This document shows positions 8,183 through 17,577 of a DNA stretch of 26,852 bases, piece by piece. This DNA comes from a virus (lineage: Duplodnaviria; Heunggongvirae; Uroviricota; Caudoviricetes). Made by a program: the position numbers and the translations under genes. Each line of letters opens with the position of its first letter. Within the stretch, counting starts at the first letter, position 1. A model generated the notes under the pieces. The model was not told where the DNA came from. It was given only the letters and a program-made list of their open reading frames with translations, and did no database searches. The stretch is from IMG/VR virus record IMGVR_UViG_3300020045_002497, positions 1 to 26,852 of that record; one strand, given 5' to 3'.

Positions 8183-8209
8183 ATTAAAGAGTAAAAAAAA
8201 GTAAACCCC

Positions 8210-8235
8210 GTGTAGATACCTATCAGTATTTACAC
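8210..8235 (+). promoter_or_regulatory. Intergenic hairpin upstream of a long A-rich leader
   Basis: GTGTAGATAC (8210-8219) / GTATTTACAC (8226-8235), 10-bp stem with one G-U, 6-nt loop; no U-tract on the + strand. Confidence 0.5.
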
Positions 8236-8275
8236 ACTAAATAAAATAAATAACAATTAAAAAAAAACAAAAAAC

Positions 8276-8767
8276 ATGGAATTTTTAACAGTAAAAGAAT
8301 TAGCATTAAATCCTGCAGGTTACTTAATCAGCGCAACATCTAAAAAACCAGTAACTCACCCAGCATTTGTTGCTCAACAAAAAAATGCAGAGTACACTGT
8401 AAAATTAGCTGACGCTATTAAAGGTAAAACTTTCAAATGTGGTAAAACTGATGATTTGGATAAAATCAAAGCTGAAGTATTAGCAGCAATTAACGCTAAA
8501 AACGTTAAGCAATTTGTTGCTACTCCTGAAAAACCAAAAAGTGCAGTACAAGATGAATTAGTTCAACATGCTTTAAACTTTGCTAACTACGAAGTTAAAA
8601 AAGGAGAAGTTGCAAAAATTAATGAAGTTATGGCTGAATTTGAAGCTATTACTGCAGTTGAAGAAGTTGGTGATTATTTCTCTGAAGGTTTAGTTAAATT
8701 AACTAAAATCTATACTACAGAAGAAATTTTAGCAGCTGTTCAAGCTACTGCTGAAACATTGAAATAA
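8276..8767 (+). CDS. Ala/Lys/Glu-rich helical hypothetical protein, probably highly expressed
   Basis: 163 aa; visibly uses AAC/TAC/TTC/ATC/GCT codons more than neighbours; long A-rich leader. Confidence 0.85.
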   Translation: MEFLTVKELALNPAGYLISATSKKPVTHPAFVAQQKNAEYTVKLADAIKGKTFKCGKTDDLDKIKAEVLAAINAKNVKQFVATPEKPKSAVQDELVQHALNFANYEVKKGEVAKINEVMAEFEAITAVEEVGDYFSEGLVKLTKIYTTEEILAAVQATAETLK

Positions 8768-8773
8768 TAAATT

Positions 8774-8843
8774 AAATAAATAATAGGTGTCAAATATTGG
8801 CAGTTGATTAAATGTTGTGACAACAACAGCCTATTATTTATTT
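8774..8843 (+). other. Structured intergenic element, copy A
   Basis: Perfect 14-bp inverted repeat AAATAAATAATAGG / CCTATTATTTATTT enclosing 42 nt; similar to 17496-17562. Confidence 0.65.
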
Positions 8844-8857
8844 TAAATTTAAAAAAC

Positions 8858-9601
8858 ATGCGTGAACATTTTGAGAATGCTATTGAATTATTAAAAAAAC
8901 AACAAATTAATGGATGTATTACAGGTTCTTGTATGCTTGAATTCAATGAAAGTTGGAATCAAGACATAGATTTATTTGTATATGATAAAGCTAGCTTTAC
9001 TAAAATACTTTGGTTTATGTATTATAATCCAATGTTTAATATTCTAGATCCATTAGAAAATCATAAATTCAAAGATTTTGTAGATAATGATAAATCATCA
9101 TTAGAGCAACTTGGTTTGATAACAATAAAATTTAAATATAATCTATTGATAGATGTCAATGTTATATTTAAGAAATTTCATAAAACATGTTTTGATGTAA
9201 TAAGTAATTTTGATTTAGATCTAATTGCTACAGCTTATGACATTAAAACAGGAAAAACAATCTCTTTAAGAGAAACAACAGGATTAGAAGGTACTTGGAA
9301 CAAATGGAATCCAACTTTCTATCAACATGAATTCTGGTCAACAAAGCGTCTATTAAGACAATTTGAACGTGTAATTAAATACACAGAAAGAGGTTATGAT
9401 CTATCTACAGTTACTGATAAGTATATATTAATAGTAGAAGAAATCATTCAATCAGAGAATTTTTATAAAACAGAGAAAGGAACAAAGTACTTTGAAGATA
9501 ATATTGAAACCTTTGAAGTAGTATTAAAAATATTGCAAGAGTGGAAGAAGACTAAATCTATCTCACCTGCTGAATTACTCACACTTAAAACGTTGATTTA
9601 A
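8858..9601 (+). CDS. Nucleotidyltransferase, Pol-beta superfamily (CCA/poly(A) polymerase head-like); start revised from 8804 to ATG 8858
   Basis: GCITGS...QDIDLF (hGS..DhD), third Asp in IDVN, ISNFDLD at the position of the RRDFT motif. Confidence 0.7.
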   Translation: MREHFENAIELLKKQQINGCITGSCMLEFNESWNQDIDLFVYDKASFTKILWFMYYNPMFNILDPLENHKFKDFVDNDKSSLEQLGLITIKFKYNLLIDVNVIFKKFHKTCFDVISNFDLDLIATAYDIKTGKTISLRETTGLEGTWNKWNPTFYQHEFWSTKRLLRQFERVIKYTERGYDLSTVTDKYILIVEEIIQSENFYKTEKGTKYFEDNIETFEVVLKILQEWKKTKSISPAELLTLKTLI

Positions 9602-9902
9602 TGGACGATTTTATATTACCTGATACTTGGTGTATAAAAATAACTGAAGATAATCGTAAAATTATAAATGATTGGAAAATAAAACAACCAGTTTTAAATG
9701 ATGATTTATTTAAACATTTACAATATATATATGTTAATCATGGACGGTGGTTGGATCAGATGATCATTACAAAAAACAAGAATTATCAATTGAAGAATTT
9801 ATACAATATGTATTAAAACAAGAGATTGAAGTTAAACAAAAATCAATTAAGGAAGATACTACTTATCTCATTAATTTTTTAAAACAAAATAATATTACAT
9901 AA
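9601..9902 (+). pseudogene. Family B small gene with a -1 frameshift near 9738-9760
   Basis: Frame 1 gives FILPDTWCIKITEDNRKIINDW; the shifted frame continues SDDHYKKQELSIEEFIQYVL...KEDTTYLINFLKQNNIT* (TAA 9900-9902), restoring the family motif and tag. Confidence 0.75.
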
Positions 9903-9903
9903 T

Positions 9904-10086
9904 ATGTCATCAGAGATGGATAAACTCCTTGAGGAGTTAAGAGCAATGAAAAAAACTGGCCCTACATTTAATGCTAAAACTGTATGGGATGGTATTGCAC
10001 AAAGAAAAGATTTCTCAGAAATGGGATTTAAATCAATTGAGGAATTTGAACAATGGATTTCAGATAATCCTTACGCTAATTTATAA
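9904..10086 (+). CDS. Hypothetical protein, 60 aa
   Basis: Packed ORF with plausible composition. Confidence 0.65.
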   Translation: MSSEMDKLLEELRAMKKTGPTFNAKTVWDGIAQRKDFSEMGFKSIEEFEQWISDNPYANL

Positions 10087-10089
10087 GAT

Positions 10090-10341
10090 ATGAAAAAGTT
10101 TATAAAAGATAACCACCTATCATTTGGTGAAGGGATGAGAAATTCTACAGTTACCGTACTTATCGGGTATTCTCAACATTTAGGATTATCTCAAAATGAT
10201 TTAGAAGTAGAATTATCTGATGAAATAGAAGCAGATAGTTTTATTCAAGAAGAAATAAATAGATTATGGATTTATTGTAAAAGAAATGATTACAAGAAAT
10301 TCTGGAAAACAGCTCAGGCTAAAAAACAATATACATTTTAA
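10090..10341 (+). CDS. Stand-alone PriCT (primase C-terminal)-like helical domain
   Basis: FGEGMRNSTVTVLIGYSQHLG matches the EGxRNxxLxxLxGxL..G pattern of PriCT-1; lies near a Prim-Pol domain gene. Confidence 0.55.
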   Translation: MKKFIKDNHLSFGEGMRNSTVTVLIGYSQHLGLSQNDLEVELSDEIEADSFIQEEINRLWIYCKRNDYKKFWKTAQAKKQYTF

Positions 10342-10351
10342 ATTAAAAATT

Positions 10352-10654
10352 ATGATAAGACAACCAATTAATTCAGTAATAGGAATAAAATTTAGAAGTT
10401 GCACTGATTACTATACAGGTAAAAAAGAATCTAAGACATATGGTTATGTTGAATTAAATAATGGTATCTTAGAAATTTCTAAATTTAAAAATGCAGGTAA
10501 ATTAAATATTGAACTTCGTGTAATGAGGGGTAATACATTAAAACCTGAATTGAAGAAAATAGTAAATTCTTATTCAGATATTAGACATTATGTTAAGGAA
10601 TTAAACTATGAAGACATGTCTGAATTACAAAATCTATTATCTGAAATACAATGA
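10352..10654 (+). CDS. Hypothetical protein, 100 aa (start revised from 10286), with tag-like end
   Basis: ATG 10352 after A-rich leader; ends YEDMSELQNLLSEIQ, aligning with KEDLSYLIPLLKDLQ. Confidence 0.7.
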   Translation: MIRQPINSVIGIKFRSCTDYYTGKKESKTYGYVELNNGILEISKFKNAGKLNIELRVMRGNTLKPELKKIVNSYSDIRHYVKELNYEDMSELQNLLSEIQ

Positions 10655-11127
10655 AATCATTCCTATTAAATAAAGCAACAAATACACCTATTGTTCGCTG
10701 GAGTCTTGTACCTAACAATTGTTTTTTTGAAGGAGCTATTCCTGAAGGTTATGCTTTAGCAGTAGCTCCATCAGAAAATTATATTGTGTTAGATGTAGAT
10801 AAAAAAAATGGTAAAAATGGATTTGCGAGTATTCCAATTCACATATCTGGATTATTAGAACATACTTTTTATTATTATACTAAATCAGGTGGTGCTCATT
10901 ATTGGATTAAGTACACTGGAGATAAAGTATTATTAAATACATCTACTAAATACGGTTTAGATTTACGCATAGGAGCTAAACCAGGTAATAGTGGTGGATA
11001 TGTCAAATATCCTCATAATGTAGACATTAGACAATGTATTCAGTTAATTAAAGAATCTTCTTCAGAGTTAAATGTGTGGTTAGAATCATTATTTTGTGGA
11101 GTAAATCATGAAAAATATGGAAAATAA
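10651..11127 (+). CDS. Bifunctional DNA primase/polymerase N-terminal (Prim-Pol, AEP) domain
   Basis: IVLDVD (motif I), TKSGGAHYW (motif II), LDLR..GGYVKYP (motif III). Confidence 0.8.
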   Translation: MKSFLLNKATNTPIVRWSLVPNNCFFEGAIPEGYALAVAPSENYIVLDVDKKNGKNGFASIPIHISGLLEHTFYYYTKSGGAHYWIKYTGDKVLLNTSTKYGLDLRIGAKPGNSGGYVKYPHNVDIRQCIQLIKESSSELNVWLESLFCGVNHEKYGK

Positions 11128-11461
11128 CAATTTTAAAAAGGGAGATTATGTAGTTTTATTAAGTGGATGTGATGGTACAAATACATGGCCTGATGTAATA
11201 CCTATAAATTATTGTTATAAATTAAGAGAAGACTCTAATGATTTAACATTTAGAGTTGCTAGAGATACACGAGGAAGTAAATCCAATGGTTGGTATACTA
11301 CTCCACCATATGATAGTAAACTTTTATTAAGAGCTGCTACATCATCTGAAATTAAATTATATGAAGAATTTGGTAAACCATTTAGTGTTTCTATTTATAT
11401 TCCTGAATCTTATGAATATTTAATTCCATTACTTAAAGAATTAGATAATGAAACTACATGA
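11108..11461 (+). CDS. Small protein, family A-like (RAAT..EI), with SYEYLIPLL tag
   Basis: LRAATSSEIKLY; ends PESYEYLIPLLKELDNETT. Confidence 0.8.
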   Translation: MKNMENNNFKKGDYVVLLSGCDGTNTWPDVIPINYCYKLREDSNDLTFRVARDTRGSKSNGWYTTPPYDSKLLLRAATSSEIKLYEEFGKPFSVSIYIPESYEYLIPLLKELDNETT

Positions 11462-11864
11462 TATTAAACAAGATATAGAAAAATTAATTCCTGGAATTGA
11501 TTATTCTACATTTGTTGGACACATGTCTATTCAACGTAAATCTTATAAATTTAAATTAGAAGAAATGAAAGAAGAAATAGAAAGTGATGTAAAAATTGGT
11601 GATTTTATACAATATGTACAGGGTGGTAGACATAATTCAGATGTTGTTCCTAGATACTCATCTACATTTCAACAACATGAAATAGGTAATTATACTTATA
11701 TTTTAGATATTGTTGAAGATACTAAAGGAAAATTAGGATATAAAGTTCAATGTGAACGTGGAATTACATATATAAGAAGAGAAGCTTTTAAACTTGTTCT
11801 TAATGCTCCACAACCTAAAGAAGACCTATCTTACCTTATTCCACTATTAAAAGATTTACAATGA
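11448..11864 (+). CDS. Hypothetical protein with EDLSYLIPLL tag
   Basis: Ends PKEDLSYLIPLLKDLQ. Confidence 0.8.
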   Translation: MKLHDIKQDIEKLIPGIDYSTFVGHMSIQRKSYKFKLEEMKEEIESDVKIGDFIQYVQGGRHNSDVVPRYSSTFQQHEIGNYTYILDIVEDTKGKLGYKVQCERGITYIRREAFKLVLNAPQPKEDLSYLIPLLKDLQ

Positions 11865-12184
11865 AAAAGAGATTTAGTTTACCTACAAATTGGTGTGTGA
11901 TAATAACTGAAGAAAATCGAGAGATGCTTGAAAGTTATAGAGTAACTATGAATTGTAATAATTCTGACGGTAATACATGTTTAGATGATGATGCGTTAAA
12001 TAAATATTTAATAGCTAACGATTTATATAGTGATAATATGTATTGGGGATTTGAACAACCTGATGAATATGTTTTAATTTCATTTGAGGATTTTCAAAAA
12101 TATATTTTAAAAAAGAACCCTAATGTTCCAAAAGAAGATTTAATATTCTTAAAAAATTTATTAATTCAAAATGGTATAAACTAA
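11861..12184 (+). CDS. Small paralog family B, with EDL-type tag
   Basis: FSLPTNWCVIITEENREML...YVLISFEDFQKYIL; ends PKEDLIFLKNLLIQNGIN. Confidence 0.85.
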   Translation: MKKRFSLPTNWCVIITEENREMLESYRVTMNCNNSDGNTCLDDDALNKYLIANDLYSDNMYWGFEQPDEYVLISFEDFQKYILKKNPNVPKEDLIFLKNLLIQNGIN

Positions 12185-12477
12185 TGGAAGAAGAATTTAT
12201 ATTACCTAATTTATGGTGGTTAAAAGCAGATGAAAATAATTATAATTTAATTGATAAATGGAGAAATGATTCTTTTAAAGGTAGAACACCATTTGATAGA
12301 AATTATCATTATGTATCTTATAGTGGTTGAGGTTCTACTCCAGAAAAAGATGGTTTTATAATAACTACAAATCAATTTATAAAATATGTACTCAATATTG
12401 AAGAACCAATTACCAATAATACACCAGAAGATTTATCATATCTGATAGATTTATTTAAACAACAACAAATAATTTAA
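12184..12477 (+). pseudogene. Family B small gene interrupted by an in-frame TGA (12328-12330); not in ORF track
   Basis: MEEEFILPNLWWLKADENNYNLIDKW...SYSG*GST...NQFIKYVL...PEDLSYLIDLFKQQQII* with TAA 12475-12477; TAATG-coupled to the upstream gene. Confidence 0.8.
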
Positions 12478-12478
12478 T

Positions 12479-12673
12479 ATGGAAACATTAGTTAAAAAAC
12501 CAACAATAGAAGTATCTAAAGCTAAATTAACAGCAATGGTAGATTCTGGATTAAAGAAAGAACAAATTGCAGAATGTTTTGGATTAAACATGGCTCAAAC
12601 AACTAAATTATTAAAATCTGCTGGATTGAAAATTCGTAAATTTCATTCTCCGGCATTTATATTGACAGCGTAA
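12479..12673 (+). CDS. Small helix-turn-helix protein
   Basis: GLKKEQIAECFGLNMAQTTKLLKSAG has an HTH pattern. Confidence 0.65.
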   Translation: METLVKKPTIEVSKAKLTAMVDSGLKKEQIAECFGLNMAQTTKLLKSAGLKIRKFHSPAFILTA

Positions 12674-12674
12674 T

Positions 12675-13760
12675 ATGACAACTAGGTCGGATATTCAAAA
12701 TAAAGTACTTGACATTTTAAAAGATGTTAATAGGGGTACAGTAGCTCTTTCAGGCTCAGGAGGTAAAACACTAATAGGATTAAGACATATGGATTCTGTT
12801 CAATCAGGACATTTTAAATTTTTAGTTGTTGCTCCTAAGAAATCAATATTTGAATCTTGGAAAGATGAAGCTATTAAATTTAAATTTGAACATCTTCTTA
12901 GTGATATTACTTTTTCAACATATTTATCTTTAAGTAAACAAGATATAAACAGTTATGATGTTATTTATTTGGATGAATGTCATTCACTTACGTTAACTTG
13001 TAATTCAATATTGAGTAAATTTAAAGGTAAAATTATAGGACTTACTGGTACACCACCAACTAACTCTAAATCAGAGAAATGGTTTATGGTAGATAAGTAT
13101 TGTCCTATAGTCTATTCTTATAATACTGATGAAGCTATAGACCATTCAATTTTGAATGACTATAGAATCATTGTTCATTATGTAGACTTAGATACAGAAA
13201 AAAACATTAAGGTTGTGAAACCTACTGCAACTTGGATGACAAGTGAAACTGCAATCTATAATTACTGGTCAAATAGAGTAGAAACTTCTTTTGGTAAGAT
13301 GAAACAAATAGCAGCTATACAACGCATGAAGGCTATGCAAGCATTTAAATCTAAAGAGTTAAAAGCTACTTACCTATTAAATAGTATTGGAATGTATAGT
13401 AAATGTCTTTGCTTTGCAAGTACTCAAGAGCAATCAGCTAGAATCTGTCCAATAACTTATCACTCAAAGAATAAGTTTTCAGAATCAAATTTAGAGTCTT
13501 TTAAACAAGGAAAATTACTGAAATTATGTGCTGTAGAACAATTAAATGAAGGAATCAATATACCTAATCTTAAATATGGTGTGATAATGCACTCTTACGG
13601 CAATGAGAGAAAAGCTAGTCAAAAGATATTTAGATTTCTTAGATTAAATCCAGATGATTGTGCAACAGTTCATATATTATGTTTTAAAAATACTATTGAT
13701 GAACAATGGGTGAAATCAGCATTGGGAGGATTCAAACAAAGCAAAATTGTTTATGTCTAA
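12675..13760 (+). CDS. Superfamily 2 (DExH) helicase
   Basis: SGSGGKT, LVVAP, LDECH, GLTGT, EGINIPNL, QKIFRFLR. Confidence 0.88.
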   Translation: MTTRSDIQNKVLDILKDVNRGTVALSGSGGKTLIGLRHMDSVQSGHFKFLVVAPKKSIFESWKDEAIKFKFEHLLSDITFSTYLSLSKQDINSYDVIYLDECHSLTLTCNSILSKFKGKIIGLTGTPPTNSKSEKWFMVDKYCPIVYSYNTDEAIDHSILNDYRIIVHYVDLDTEKNIKVVKPTATWMTSETAIYNYWSNRVETSFGKMKQIAAIQRMKAMQAFKSKELKATYLLNSIGMYSKCLCFASTQEQSARICPITYHSKNKFSESNLESFKQGKLLKLCAVEQLNEGINIPNLKYGVIMHSYGNERKASQKIFRFLRLNPDDCATVHILCFKNTIDEQWVKSALGGFKQSKIVYV

Positions 13761-13777
13761 GATTATGTCTATATTTG
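13747..13777 (+). promoter_or_regulatory. Candidate Bacteroidota housekeeping-sigma promoter for the homing endonuclease
   Basis: TATATTTG (13770-13777) fits TAnnTTTG; TTG at 13747-13749 lies 20 nt upstream; the motif is short and the genome AT-rich. Confidence 0.45.
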
Positions 13778-13781
13778 TATT

Positions 13782-14555
13782 ATGAAAGAACAAATAAATA
13801 CTTTAGGTTTTATATACATGATAACAAGTCCAACAGGTAGATTATATGTTGGATCAACTATCAATATTAAAAATAGATTAAAAAGTTATAAAAGTAGTCC
13901 TTCTAAAGGACAGGTAAAACTTTATAATTCTTTTAAAAAGTATGGATTTGAAAAACATATATTTGAAGTAATTATGACTTGTTCTATTAATGAAATGTAT
14001 AAATATGAAACATTAATAGGATTTGGATTCAACGTACTTGAACCTGAAAATTTAAATTTAAAATTACCTAAATTAAATAATGAATATTCTTCTATGAGTG
14101 AAGAAACAAAAATTAAAATAGGTTTAAAAAATAAAGGTAAAATACATACAGATGAATTTAAAAATAGATTACGAAATGCAAATTTAGGTAGGATTATGTC
14201 AGACGCAACAAAAGAAAAAATAAGTAAAGCTAATAAAAATCCATCAAAAGAAATAAGATTGAGAAAAAGTAAATCTCAATTAGGTAGAATTTTTTCACAA
14301 GAAGTTCGAGATAAAATAAGTAATTCTCATAAAGGTAAAAAATTAAGTATTGCACATAAAGAAAATATAGGTAAAACTAAATATATACCAATTAATCAAT
14401 ATGATTTGAATGATAATTTTATTAAAGAATGGGAAAGTATTAAATCTGCAAGTATTGATTTAAAAATAGCTAATATAAGTATTTCTTTATGTTGTAAAGG
14501 TAGAAGAAAAACAGCAGGAAAATTTAAATGGAAATACAACAATGGAACAACTTAA
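13782..14555 (+). mobile_element. Free-standing GIY-YIG homing endonuclease (HEG1) with NUMOD3-like repeats and a NUMOD1-like C-terminus
   Basis: GFIYMIT...LYVGST...R; repeats such as SEETKIKIG and SDATKEKIS; QYDLNDNFIKEWESIKSA...FKWKY. Confidence 0.9.
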
Positions 14556-15141
14556 TATTGATTTACAAAAGCTATTAGAAAATAAACTTAAAATTGAGGA
14601 TTATTTTGTATTATTTTGTTTAGTTTACGACAATGAAGAAATGTTAATGAAGTATATTACTACTTGTGGTAGAATAGAAACAGTAATATTTCAAAGATTA
14701 AGAGATTCAGGTTTTATTATCTTAAAAGATGAGTTAAATATTCTTTTTAATGAGATTAAAGTAACAGACCAGGCTAAAAATTTATTTAATGCTCAGAACA
14801 ACAATGTTGATTTTGAACCACTATTTAAAGAACTACTGTCTACTTATCCAAAATCTGTTAAAAGAGTTACTGGTGGTACTAGACCACTACACAATGACTT
14901 ACAAAGATGTAAGAAATTATATAAATCGACGATATTGAGTATTGGTTTGGTTAATAAAGAATTACATCAAAAGATTTTATTGTGTGTGCAAAAGTATTAT
15001 CGGGATCATCTTAAAGATAATAAACAGGAATTTATGCAATTATTAGCTACTTTTTTATCCCAAAGAACTTGGGAACAATATCTAGAAGATGTTAGCAACA
15101 TTCAAGAATTACCTAAACCACAAGATTATGACGCAATTTAA
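14542..15141 (+). CDS. Putative replication initiator / helicase-loader-type protein
   Basis: wHTH-like N-half; F..L...YP.. motif typical of phage initiator C-termini; overlaps the DnaB start. Confidence 0.5.
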   Translation: MEQLNIDLQKLLENKLKIEDYFVLFCLVYDNEEMLMKYITTCGRIETVIFQRLRDSGFIILKDELNILFNEIKVTDQAKNLFNAQNNNVDFEPLFKELLSTYPKSVKRVTGGTRPLHNDLQRCKKLYKSTILSIGLVNKELHQKILLCVQKYYRDHLKDNKQEFMQLLATFLSQRTWEQYLEDVSNIQELPKPQDYDAI

Positions 15142-16186
15142 ACAAAGAATTGAACAGGGGTTATTAGGTGAATATCAAGGATTAGCTAATGGTTTTAATA
15201 GAATTAATAAGTATATATACAATATACAAAGAGGTTGTTACAGTTTAATTGGAGGCTTGTCAGGAAGCTCTAAAACAACGTTATGTGATTTTATATTATT
15301 AAATGGATTACAGGATGCTATTGCAAAAAATATCCCATTTAATGTAACTTATTACTCTTGGGAAATTGATGAAGTAAGTAAGAAAGCTAATTGGTTATCT
15401 GTTTTAATTTATAACAAATATGACAGAGTTATATCACCTCAAACTATTAAAGGTTTAGGTGATTCTAGATTAACAGAAGAAGAACAAGAGATTGTTTATA
15501 GTATGTTACCAGAATTAGAAGATTTATTTTCTAAAATAACTTGGCATTGGGTACCTACAAATCCTACTGGATTATATTCAGAATGGTGGAAAACAATGTC
15601 TGCTAAAGGTAAATTTAATACTGTACCTTATGTAGATGAAAATGGGGATAATAAAGATAGAATAGTTAGTTGGACAGCTGATAATAAAGAAGAGTACAAT
15701 ATTGTAATATTAGATCACTTAGCATTAGGACGACTAGAAAGAGGATTTACACTTAAGCAGAATATTGATAAAATATCTGAATATATTGTAGGATGTAGAA
15801 ATATGTTTAATATGACATTTTATATTGTAGCTCAATTTAATCAAGGATTAAGTTCAATAGAAAGATTAAAATTTAAAGGTGCAGATATTTCTCCACAACA
15901 AACAGATTTTAAAGATTCTACTTCCCCTTATCAAGATGCTGACGTAGTGATGGGCTTATTAAACGCCTATAAAATGGATTTAGAAACAAGTCTAAATTAC
16001 AATATTAAAGTAGATGGATTTCCTAATAATTTAAAGGGAAAATATAGACTTTTAAAAATTATCAAAAATCGGTTAGGTCAAGATAATATCTCTATTGGTT
16101 TATATACTAAACCAGAAGCAGGATATTTTGAAGAATTACCTAAAGAAATGACATCAGAAGATTACTTAATGTATCAAAAGAAGTAG
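15128..16186 (+). CDS. dnaB: DnaB-like (SF4) replicative helicase, RecA domain only; start revised from 15089
   Basis: GGLSGSSKTT, YSWEI, ILDHL, VAQFNQ, DFKDS...QDADVVMGL, IIKNRLG. Confidence 0.87.
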   Translation: MTQFKQRIEQGLLGEYQGLANGFNRINKYIYNIQRGCYSLIGGLSGSSKTTLCDFILLNGLQDAIAKNIPFNVTYYSWEIDEVSKKANWLSVLIYNKYDRVISPQTIKGLGDSRLTEEEQEIVYSMLPELEDLFSKITWHWVPTNPTGLYSEWWKTMSAKGKFNTVPYVDENGDNKDRIVSWTADNKEEYNIVILDHLALGRLERGFTLKQNIDKISEYIVGCRNMFNMTFYIVAQFNQGLSSIERLKFKGADISPQQTDFKDSTSPYQDADVVMGLLNAYKMDLETSLNYNIKVDGFPNNLKGKYRLLKIIKNRLGQDNISIGLYTKPEAGYFEELPKEMTSEDYLMYQKK

Positions 16187-16187
16187 A

Positions 16188-16856
16188 ATGGGAAGAATTA
16201 TATTAACCATTGGTGAACCTGGAACAGGAAAGTCAAGAGGAATATTAAATTTAGATGAGAATACAACTCTATTAATTAAACCTAATAGAAAAGAGCTACC
16301 TTTTAAAGGTGGTGCTGTGAAATACAGTGTAGAAAAAGGTAATGTTGTAAATTGTACAACATTTCCAGTATTAAAAGAAATACTAACTAAAGCAAATGCT
16401 GGTACAAAATTTAAAACTATTATAGTTGAAGATTTTACACATTTACTTACTGCTAGAGTTATGGCTGATGCTAAAATTACAGGTTTTGGTAAGTGGAGTG
16501 ATTTGGCGGTTGATGTATTTCAAGGATTAATAAAAATAGAAGAGCAATTACGTGATGATTTAAATGTGATAGTAATTGGACATACAGAAAGAAATACTGA
16601 TGTAAATGGTAATAGTGTTATTACTTTACAAACAGTAGGGAAGTTATTAGATAATCAAATCAAAATACCTTCATACTTTACTTATGTTCTTCATACTGAT
16701 GTGAAAGAAGTGAATGGAAAAATGGAATATTCATTATTAACTAATAGTGATGGTCTTAGATTAGCTAAATCTCCTGAAGGGTGTTTAGATAAATTTGAAC
16801 CTAACGATTATGCGTTAATATTGAATAAAATACACAGATATCAATTAGGAGAGTAA
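16188..16856 (+). CDS. AAA_24 / Sak4-like ATPase (single-strand annealing or recombination)
   Basis: IGEPGTGKS Walker A, IIVED Walker B, VIGH, LAKSP; adjacent to an SSB-like gene as in Sak4 loci. Confidence 0.8.
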   Translation: MGRIILTIGEPGTGKSRGILNLDENTTLLIKPNRKELPFKGGAVKYSVEKGNVVNCTTFPVLKEILTKANAGTKFKTIIVEDFTHLLTARVMADAKITGFGKWSDLAVDVFQGLIKIEEQLRDDLNVIVIGHTERNTDVNGNSVITLQTVGKLLDNQIKIPSYFTYVLHTDVKEVNGKMEYSLLTNSDGLRLAKSPEGCLDKFEPNDYALILNKIHRYQLGE

Positions 16857-16893
16857 TTTCCCTAATAAATTTAAATTAAAAATATATAAAATT

Positions 16894-17487
16894 ATGTTCG
16901 GTTTTGAAAATGCAGAAGTATCTAAAGGTAATTATAAAGAAACAATTAAACCTGGAATCAACCTTGTTAAAGTTGTTAAAATTGAAAATGGATTAAGTTC
17001 TAAAGCTCAAGCTCCACAAATTACATTTACAGTAAATGATAATCATGGTGCTGAGTTAGTACAAATTTATTCATTAAATACAACAATTAATCCAGGTAAA
17101 AAAATGTCTGGATGGGATGTTACTAAAAATGCAATCTTATCAATGGTTGCTGCGGCATTATCTTTAGATGAGGTTTCCGCCAAAACTAAAATGCCAAATG
17201 CTAAATCTGCTGAAGAATTAGCTCAAAAATTATCTGTTTTATTAGCAGGTAAAGAATTCAAATTAAAAGTTGTAGGAGAAGAAAGAATTTCTCAAAAAGG
17301 AACTAAATATGTAGCTTCTTCTTTTGGAAATGGAGTATTCTGTGAATCTAAATCAGTTTCTGCAGATGATACTAAATTATTCTTTAGTCCTGAAAAGAAC
17401 ATTAAGAAGTTAGACATTGAACCAGCAACTAATGATGCTTCAAAAGAAGGATTTTCTGCACCTACATCACCAGTTGATTTCGGATAA
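16894..17487 (+). CDS. Putative single-stranded DNA-binding protein (DUF669-like)
   Basis: Position after the Sak4-like ATPase; IKPG...VKVVKIE beta-rich N-terminus; flexible C-terminal tail ending in DFG. Confidence 0.6.
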   Translation: MFGFENAEVSKGNYKETIKPGINLVKVVKIENGLSSKAQAPQITFTVNDNHGAELVQIYSLNTTINPGKKMSGWDVTKNAILSMVAAALSLDEVSAKTKMPNAKSAEELAQKLSVLLAGKEFKLKVVGEERISQKGTKYVASSFGNGVFCESKSVSADDTKLFFSPEKNIKKLDIEPATNDASKEGFSAPTSPVDFG

Positions 17488-17495
17488 TAACAATT

Positions 17496-17562
17496 AAGTA
17501 ATAATAGGTACCCATGGCCACCGGGAGTAAATGGAAGTAGTATTCTCAGCCTATTGTTATTT
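17496..17562 (+). other. Structured intergenic element, copy B
   Basis: AAGTAATAATAGG / CCTATTGTTATTT 13-bp stem (two G-U) enclosing 41 nt; shares TAAATG and CAGCCTATT with copy A. Confidence 0.65.
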
Positions 17563-17577
17563 TTTAAAATCAAATTT

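Follow-up and report, generated by a model that had tools for sequence, protein, structure and literature searches.

A new and widespread phage RNA motif, predicted to form a three-way junction, at two intergenic sites of a 90,852-bp phage genome

The first 26,852 nucleotides of the virus record IMGVR_UViG_3300020045_002497 (Caudoviricetes; this stretch is hereafter the window) contain two intergenic elements, copy A and copy B, that are copies of one RNA motif, a predicted three-way junction, and we are confident that this motif is real, new, and widespread among phages. Its core can be written AGGU-P2-(U)UAAAUG-arm-CAGCCU: a closing stem (P1) with a fixed top, AGG/CCU, plus a U.G pair; a variable hairpin (P2) that begins directly after the U of AGGU and usually opens with G.U and C-G pairs; a junction strand, (U)UAAA, of 3 to 4 nucleotides; and a variable third arm (P3) within a UG...CA frame, followed by a G and then by the 3' strand of P1. 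The window is the first 26.9 kb of a genome of 90,852 bp with 27% G+C and terminal repeats, and in this genome we favor, at a probability of roughly 40%, a role for the two copies as transcript boundaries, in which the junction would cap a terminator-like hairpin that takes the place of the plain terminator of relatives.

A reading of the window made without database searches (the sequence-only reading) had singled out the two elements for their matching stems, inserts, and short motifs, and its coordinates were confirmed. Copy A has a 42-nucleotide insert (8788-8829) inside a perfect 14-bp stem (8774-8787 with 8830-8843), and copy B has a 41-nucleotide insert (17509-17549) inside a 13-bp stem with two G.U pairs (17496-17508 with 17550-17562); both inserts begin with T, contain TAAATG (8809-8814 and 17528-17533), and end in CAG. 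The likeness is beyond chance: the string AATAGG-N-CCTATT occurs at only these two sites in the 90,852-bp genome (0 in a backwards control), and a covariance model of 90 diverse relatives (R2) matches the genome at copy A (E = 4e-16) and copy B (E = 2e-12) only, a result that is partly by construction, as both copies are in the seed alignment. The whole genome thus holds exactly two copies, both on the gene strand. The folding energy by itself is significant for copy A (z of -5.25) and not for copy B (z of -1.2). The distance of exactly 22 nucleotides between CCTATT and the next ATG, also pointed out in the sequence-only reading, is found at both copies (ATG at 8858 and 17578), but it is not a conserved rule, being 18 to 22 nucleotides in close relatives and anywhere from 5 to more than 100 across the family.

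Comparative evidence carries the fold. Among 20 relatives, 84.8% of cells are paired, against at most 51% with slid partners, and covariation reaches 0.344, a value attained by none of 500 shuffles (0.157); among 90 diverse members, the corresponding values are 78.4% against 30 to 46% and 0.365 against 0.134 (again 0 of 500). The P2 helix is paired in 92.8% over these 90 members, with six pair types at each of its pairs 3 and 4, and the first four P1 pairs beyond AGG/CCU are paired in 65 to 84% of members, with five or six pair types. Because members were selected by pattern, AGGU, UAAAUG, and CAGCCU are invariant in part by construction; the P1 pairs past AGG/CCU and the inner pairs of P2, however, lie outside the search pattern and are nevertheless paired in 65 to 88% of members. 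Some drift in the core is tolerated, given the GGGU, UAAAUC, and UAAG variants present at orthologous sites. About half of the members form a hairpin in the third arm, which in the others is unstructured, and we treat this hairpin as optional. Conservation and covariation, on which the earlier proposal of an undescribed structured RNA had been staked, are thus both found in related phages, and the element belongs to no Rfam family even at E <= 10.

Individual substitutions agree with this fold. Compared with copy A, relatives carry fully compensated forms of P2 (GGCAA/UUGCU and GGAGA/UCUCU), an inner U-A pair of P3 changed to C-G (L106), and UAAG in place of the UAAA junction strand (L007). 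At copy B, P1 changes from ATAGG/CCTAT to ACAGG/CCTGT (L004, L005, L021) and P2 from CCC/GGG to GCU/AGC (L003) or UCCCA/UGGGA (L021), and the same post-SSB site (SSB, single-stranded DNA-binding protein) shows a further inner-hairpin compensation, CUAGA/UCUAG to CUAGG/CCUAG; the third arm is unvarying in five close relatives and hence supplies no covariation evidence. Two of the inner helices drawn in the sequence-only reading have comparative backing, TGTTG/CAACA in copy A (P3) and CCC/GGG in copy B (P2), whereas TGTCA/TGACA and GGGAGTA/TATTCTC are unsupported, the true P2 of copy A being GUCAA/UUGAU (8789-8793 with 8804-8808). RNAfold lengthens the copy A stem to 8768, and the folded duplexes come to about 20 to 22 bp with a 2-nucleotide bulge in copy A and 13 to 14 bp in copy B (Table 1).

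Table 1. Parts of the two motif copies and the genes upstream of them, by position in the window
Feature	Position	Strand	Basis or context
Copy A, P1 5' arm (AAATAAATAATAGG) and U8788 (paired with G8829)	8774..8788	+	family-wide covariation of P1 pairs
Copy A, P2 hairpin GUCAA / loop AUAUUGGCAG / UUGAU	8789..8808	+	compensated variants in relatives
Copy A, junction strand UAAA	8809..8812	+	no variation among members selected by pattern, in part by construction
Copy A, P3 hairpin UGUUGU / GACA / ACAACA, then G8829	8813..8829	+	folding
Copy A, P1 3' arm (CCTATTATTTATTT) leading into U-rich tail; next ATG 8858	8830..8851	+	sequence, folding
Copy B, P1 5' arm (AAGTAATAATAGG) and U17509 (paired with G17549)	17496..17509	+	compensatory change in relatives
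Copy B, P2 hairpin CCC / AUGGCCACC / GGG, flanked by A and AG	17510..17527	+	compensatory changes
Copy B, junction strand UAAA	17528..17531	+	sequence
Copy B, third arm UG GAA / GUAGUA / UUC(U)CA, then G17549	17532..17549	+	read off the sequence
Copy B, P1 3' arm (CCTATTGTTATTT) plus U6 run; next ATG 17578	17550..17565	+	sequence
Gene upstream of copy A, 163-residue protein	8276..8767	+	motif 3' of it in relatives
Gene upstream of copy B, 197-residue probable single-stranded DNA-binding protein	16894..17487	+	between Sak4-like gene and primase gene

The motif acts as RNA, since it lies on the gene strand and its G.U pairs are compatible with that strand only. The covariance model scores 73.9 bits on the plus strand against 30.7 bits on the minus strand. 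The many G.U pairs, including the invariant U.G and G.U, would be A.C mismatches on the opposite strand. As to orientation, 50 of 79 members lie between codirectional genes on the motif strand, 8 at convergent gene ends, 5 at divergent starts, and 3 antisense.

Beyond the relatives of this phage, the motif forms a wide, gene-independent RNA family, which counts well over 100 sequences from uncultured phages and which the sequence-only reading had not seen. The core pattern AGGTGC-N(8-38)-GTTAAATG-N(6-20)-CAGCCT, applied to viral contigs, matched more than 111 contig stretches; among the matches listed there are about 90 distinct sequences, and almost every one forms a clean P2 hairpin, a feature not demanded by the pattern. 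An AT-rich form of the pattern added 28 distinct members from a metagenome scan. Carrier contigs measure 5 to 200 kb, run from AT-rich to G+C-rich, and in many cases have downstream Shine-Dalgarno sites, so the carriers are not crAss-like phages only. In the family at large P1 is mostly 5 to 10 bp, and the long AU-rich P1 (13 to 22 bp), the U tract, and the distance of about 22 nucleotides to the ATG are peculiar to the present lineage. Seven members (L149, L290, L294, L315, L354, L358, and L362) form a subfamily in which the P2 loop is conserved as AUAGYGRGGCU and the third arm, which is unstructured, as UGAGGYGUAAAUGAGGAACUAACA; so much additional conservation suggests a further tertiary contact or a partner.

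The genes around the motif belong to many unrelated Pfam families, upstream (portal, methylase, ParB, and ssDNA-binding proteins among them) as well as downstream, where 26 such families occur, including Toprim primase (6 cases), scaffold (3 cases), capsid, and UDG, together with transfer RNA (tRNA) genes and small open reading frames (ORFs). The motif usually starts 5 to 50 nucleotides past a stop codon and ends 16 to 30 nucleotides before the next start, and no riboswitch-like tie to the genes of one pathway was found among the downstream genes of the family. This bears on the idea of a cis-acting sensor of the downstream gene, either a riboswitch-like aptamer or a protein operator, whose expression platform would be the 3' arm of P1 together with the U tract or the start region. 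Conservation centered on the junction, as in three-way-junction aptamers, and the distance to the next start codon would suit such a sensor, as would a terminator-like hairpin completed here by the formation of P1; but the downstream genes are unrelated, eight members stand at convergent gene ends, and a P1 of 13 to 22 bp should form without a ligand, and we consider a sensor improbable.

In a subset of members the neighbor is a tRNA gene. At least six independent members precede a same-strand tRNA gene by 4 to 18 nucleotides (L285, L301, L206, L308, L325, and L143), and others lie 33 to 43 nucleotides after a tRNA gene or within arrays (L319, L332, L354, and L337). One carrier is a cultured phage, Flavobacterium phage vB_FspP_elemoE_6-9C, in which the motif (record positions 9589-9653, minus strand) is 7 nucleotides upstream of tRNA-Met, between a TAnnTTTG-type box and that tRNA and beneath an annotated small ORF. 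The ORF, KNV12_gp88 (NC_055854.1:9543-9659; L382:1244-1360), overlaps both motif and tRNA-Met and is probably a spurious gene call. Other look-ups of cultured phages by flanking proteins or DNA were negative apart from the elemo phages. The motif is absent from Cellulophaga phage phi14:2, a crAss-like phage with published transcriptomics, and neither terminator nor hairpin signals are reported in the paper in question. None of the 401 genomes of the phylum of a Flavobacteriaceae genome contained the core pattern; as about one match was expected by chance, this shows no more than that host chromosomes do not commonly carry the motif.

At the two sites of the present phage, relatives give a more local picture. 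In five related phages of 86 to 91 kb (0.45 Mb in total), the covariance model finds eight copies, one or two per genome, always at the same two sites and on the gene strand. The 163-residue protein encoded before copy A has no Pfam or PHROG match, and the motif comes after its gene in each of the four large relatives examined, as well as in further contigs. The view that copy B follows an SSB-like gene is plausible: although the 197-residue protein gives no significant Pfam or PHROG hit, it is 28% identical (E = 3e-8) to a relative's protein that has an SSB-type tail, DLPF. Its homologues occur in 23 viral contigs, and 3' of the homologue's stop codon the same kind of element is present at 12 of 22 loci, with divergent variants at 3 more and, at the remaining 7 (L008, L015-L020), a plain GC hairpin with U6 in its place. 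L011 and L017 have identical flanks and exchanged hairpin modules, one the branched element and the other a plain terminator.

These replacements are the ground for the transcript-boundary reading that we favor: because close relatives have an ordinary intrinsic terminator at the exact position of the element, a transcript boundary is what the module most likely marks in this lineage. Canonical terminators (GC hairpin and U8) occur elsewhere in the genome, so a hairpin plus U run is the host-type signal, and a U-rich tail follows the stem at both window copies, whose stems are AU-rich and branched. As proposed, the junction would cap a long AU-rich hairpin that enters a U tract just past the stop codon and about 15 nucleotides before the next start. 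The module would stop or pause a part of the RNA polymerases, the upstream message (for the 163-residue protein or the probable SSB) would be left with a protected, nuclease-resistant 3' end, and attenuated read-through would lower the expression of the downstream enzyme genes; we take the conserved junction itself to be either a core for folding or a site bound by some widely conserved factor. The attenuator or terminator listed in the sequence-only reading thus fits this lineage but not the family.

Several observations weigh against the transcript-boundary reading. U runs are not enriched after P1 in the family as a whole and P1 is mostly 5 to 10 bp, so termination cannot be the function that conserves the junction; as most carriers do not have the long stem and U tract, the junction must serve a function common to all of them. 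Some members lie directly 5' of a start codon with no U tract (L106), a consensus terminator scan did not call the AU-rich stems of either window copy, and the members that lie 4 to 18 nucleotides upstream of a same-strand tRNA gene or inside arrays suggest a discrete small RNA.

Such an RNA is a possible explanation, if on balance an unlikely one: the motif would be the gene of a stable small RNA within messages, its junction excised or ended by the flanks (the long P1 duplex and U run here, RNase P at the adjacent tRNA in other phages) and acting in trans, for instance as a decoy or partner of a conserved host or phage factor. The closing P1 stem, the variable flanks, the one or two copies per genome, the freedom from any gene family, and the tRNA-adjacent members all point this way, as does the elemoE copy between its box and tRNA-Met, but most members are flanked by protein genes and show no promoter of their own. 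Only 7 of 77 members have a TAnnTTTG box within 60 nucleotides upstream, some of these boxes being within coding sequence, and sigma-70-like hits in the window are fewer than expected from shuffles.

Searches of known RNA families returned nothing that accounts for the element. Rfam 15 gave no hit at gathering thresholds and nothing relevant at E <= 10, either on stretches of 81 to 91 nucleotides or on seven whole loci (25 kb); its pistol, hatchet, hammerhead, twister, and riboswitch models do not match at E <= 10. A literature string search for the core motifs yielded nothing relevant and no description of the motif. ARAGORN finds no tRNA in the window, and a tRNA or tRNA-like element was rejected: the three helices resemble the acceptor/D/T layout in strand topology only, and the loops of the third arm are not T-loop-like.

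A new self-cleaving ribozyme is a rival that we judge rather unlikely. Its appeal lies in conserved nucleotides clustered at a helical junction, with stems free in length and sequence, and in gene-independent, sense-oriented, intergenic occurrence in diverse phages, a distribution shared by the hammerhead, twister, pistol, and hatchet ribozymes (PMC10085705; PMC6154101). Against it stand the failure of every Rfam ribozyme model at E <= 10, only about four conserved unpaired nucleotides, the lack of known ribozymes in 150 kb of flanks, and a topology that is not a permutation of pistol; nor is a pseudoknot supported, pairing of the P2 loop with the third arm or with CAGCCU showing no excess over shuffles. 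The strings AGGUGC and GUUAAAU of the motif resemble, in the env25 pistol ribozyme, the strand with the G-U cleavage site and the linker that follows P1, which is a lead only.

Two translational explanations were also rejected. A mini-ORF beginning at the conserved AUG would be 1 to 29 codons long, and the length of the third arm has no mod-3 bias. A ribosome-binding site split by a hairpin between AGGUG and AUG, like that of T4 gene 38, was set aside in view of the pairing of AGG in P1 and the unconserved ORF; in addition, the motif is equally common in phages of Bacteroidota, hosts that rarely use Shine-Dalgarno pairing. The matches from a scan of genome contigs are mostly a Nostocales repeat that the pattern picks by construction; it has no real P2, and we judge it unrelated. 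This 40-nucleotide repeat (L164-L196, e.g., L196:5957-6012) contains the same conserved strings, AATAGGTG...ATTAAATG...CAGCCTATT, and recurs in Anabaena, Dolichospermum, and Nostoc; it adjoins ORFs of 156 and 481 residues on the opposite strand and is possibly the end of an insertion sequence.

Gene content shifts among relatives exactly at the element. On a wastewater metatranscriptome contig from a relative, homology to copy B continues until the AGG|U boundary (17509/17510), is followed by 70 different letters, and returns at the primase start (17754), with a 57-residue ORF missing; gene-module exchange seems to break at the element here. Such breaks, together with the location of copy B between a probable SSB gene and a primase gene, would be expected of a signal in DNA, which could prime replication as a cruciform or single-strand hairpin or link gene modules in recombination. 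We hold this highly improbable: the invariant U.G and G.U and many other pairs mismatch on the other strand, orientation follows transcription, and the spacing of the conserved blocks varies by tens of nucleotides. The sequencing runs yielded Logan contigs of relatives only, with 88 to 99% identity and a small share of words; on one contig of run X5 an Illumina adapter is fused 8 nucleotides before 8826, within the P3 hairpin of copy A. This hints at most at the end of a fragment and was not used as evidence.

Other features of these regions deserve mention. Right after the stop codon of the SSB-like gene (~3095-3126 in L008 and L011-L020) is a conserved palindrome, TTTGTCACA-N14-TGTGACAA, that contains a TATATTTG box; many relatives have it 5' of their terminator or motif, but the window does not, and it could be an operator or a Bacteroidota-type -7 promoter element. 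In L009 and L010 (3086-3330), about 230 nucleotides of extra, strongly folding (-47.6 kcal/mol) noncoding sequence separate the SSB-like gene from a motif variant, GGGU...UAAAUC...CAGCCU; this stretch starts with a motif-like string, AGGUGCUUAA, and could represent another RNA. In L022, a related contig, the SSB-like gene is preceded by matches to the group I intron (882-1095, 1230-1442, and 2047-2078; 58.8 bits, above the gathering score), and a replication-region gene there is probably interrupted by one or more introns. In the window, a 93-nucleotide gap 5' of the gene for the 163-residue protein (8183-8275) holds a long A-rich leader and a 10-bp hairpin, GTGTAGATAC/GTATTTACAC, with two G.U pairs; the gene may be highly expressed and transcribed separately, from a promoter and leader in this gap.

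Small RNA motifs that combine a conserved junction and freely covarying stems with no tie to a gene family have repeatedly proved to be ribozymes or RNAs that bind ligands or proteins. The range of carriers, from crAss-like phages of Bacteroidota with 27% G+C to G+C-rich contigs with Shine-Dalgarno sites, points to a function that is self-contained or aimed at something universal. A speculative reading for the family, which we think unlikely, is that the junction is an autonomous functional RNA of many unrelated phages, either a new class of self-cleaving ribozyme or a punctuation RNA that would recruit a universal host enzyme (e.g., the tRNA-processing machinery) to cut polycistronic phage messages at defined points. 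The cultured pair of Flavobacterium sp. BAL314 and vB_FspP_elemoE_6-9C, which carries the motif, makes such proposals testable at the bench. For annotation, the motif accounts for recurrent "empty" gaps after SSB-type genes and exposes at least one probably spurious ORF call, elemoE gp88.

Among known systems, the window copies resemble intrinsic terminators and the intercistronic hairpins that stabilize messenger RNA (e.g., REP in malE-malF, T_J of phiX174) in having a stem and U tract that separate an enzyme gene from a gene, 5' of it, whose expression is probably high, and in relatives with a plain GC hairpin and U6 at the same site. They differ in that the stem is AU-rich and branched, with a sequence-conserved junction common to unrelated phages, and most members of the family have a short P1 and no U tract. 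Like the early RNase III sites of T7 (R1.1 type), they are irregular intercistronic hairpins after a putatively abundant early or middle gene. An RNase III site, as the sequence-only reading had suggested, would need about two turns (about 20 bp or more) of near-continuous duplex and could, by a predicted duplex of about 20 to 22 bp, apply to copy A at best; copy B has about 13 bp and the family mostly 5 to 10 bp, and a conserved junction sequence is not among the features of RNase III sites. The small self-cleaving ribozymes (pistol RF02679, hatchet RF02678, hammerhead, and twister) share with the motif a size of about 50 to 80 nucleotides, a conserved junction with freely varying stems, and gene-independent intergenic occurrence in phages, but the motif has no Rfam match, detected pseudoknot, or catalytic-core signature (CUGAUGA...GAAA). 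T4 rnaC and rnaD ("species 1 and 2"), GOLLD, and ROOL are, like the motif, orphan structured RNAs of phages, and several motif members adjoin or sit within tRNA arrays; the motif is, however, much smaller, and most of its copies, both of those in the window included, lie between protein genes with no tRNA nearby.

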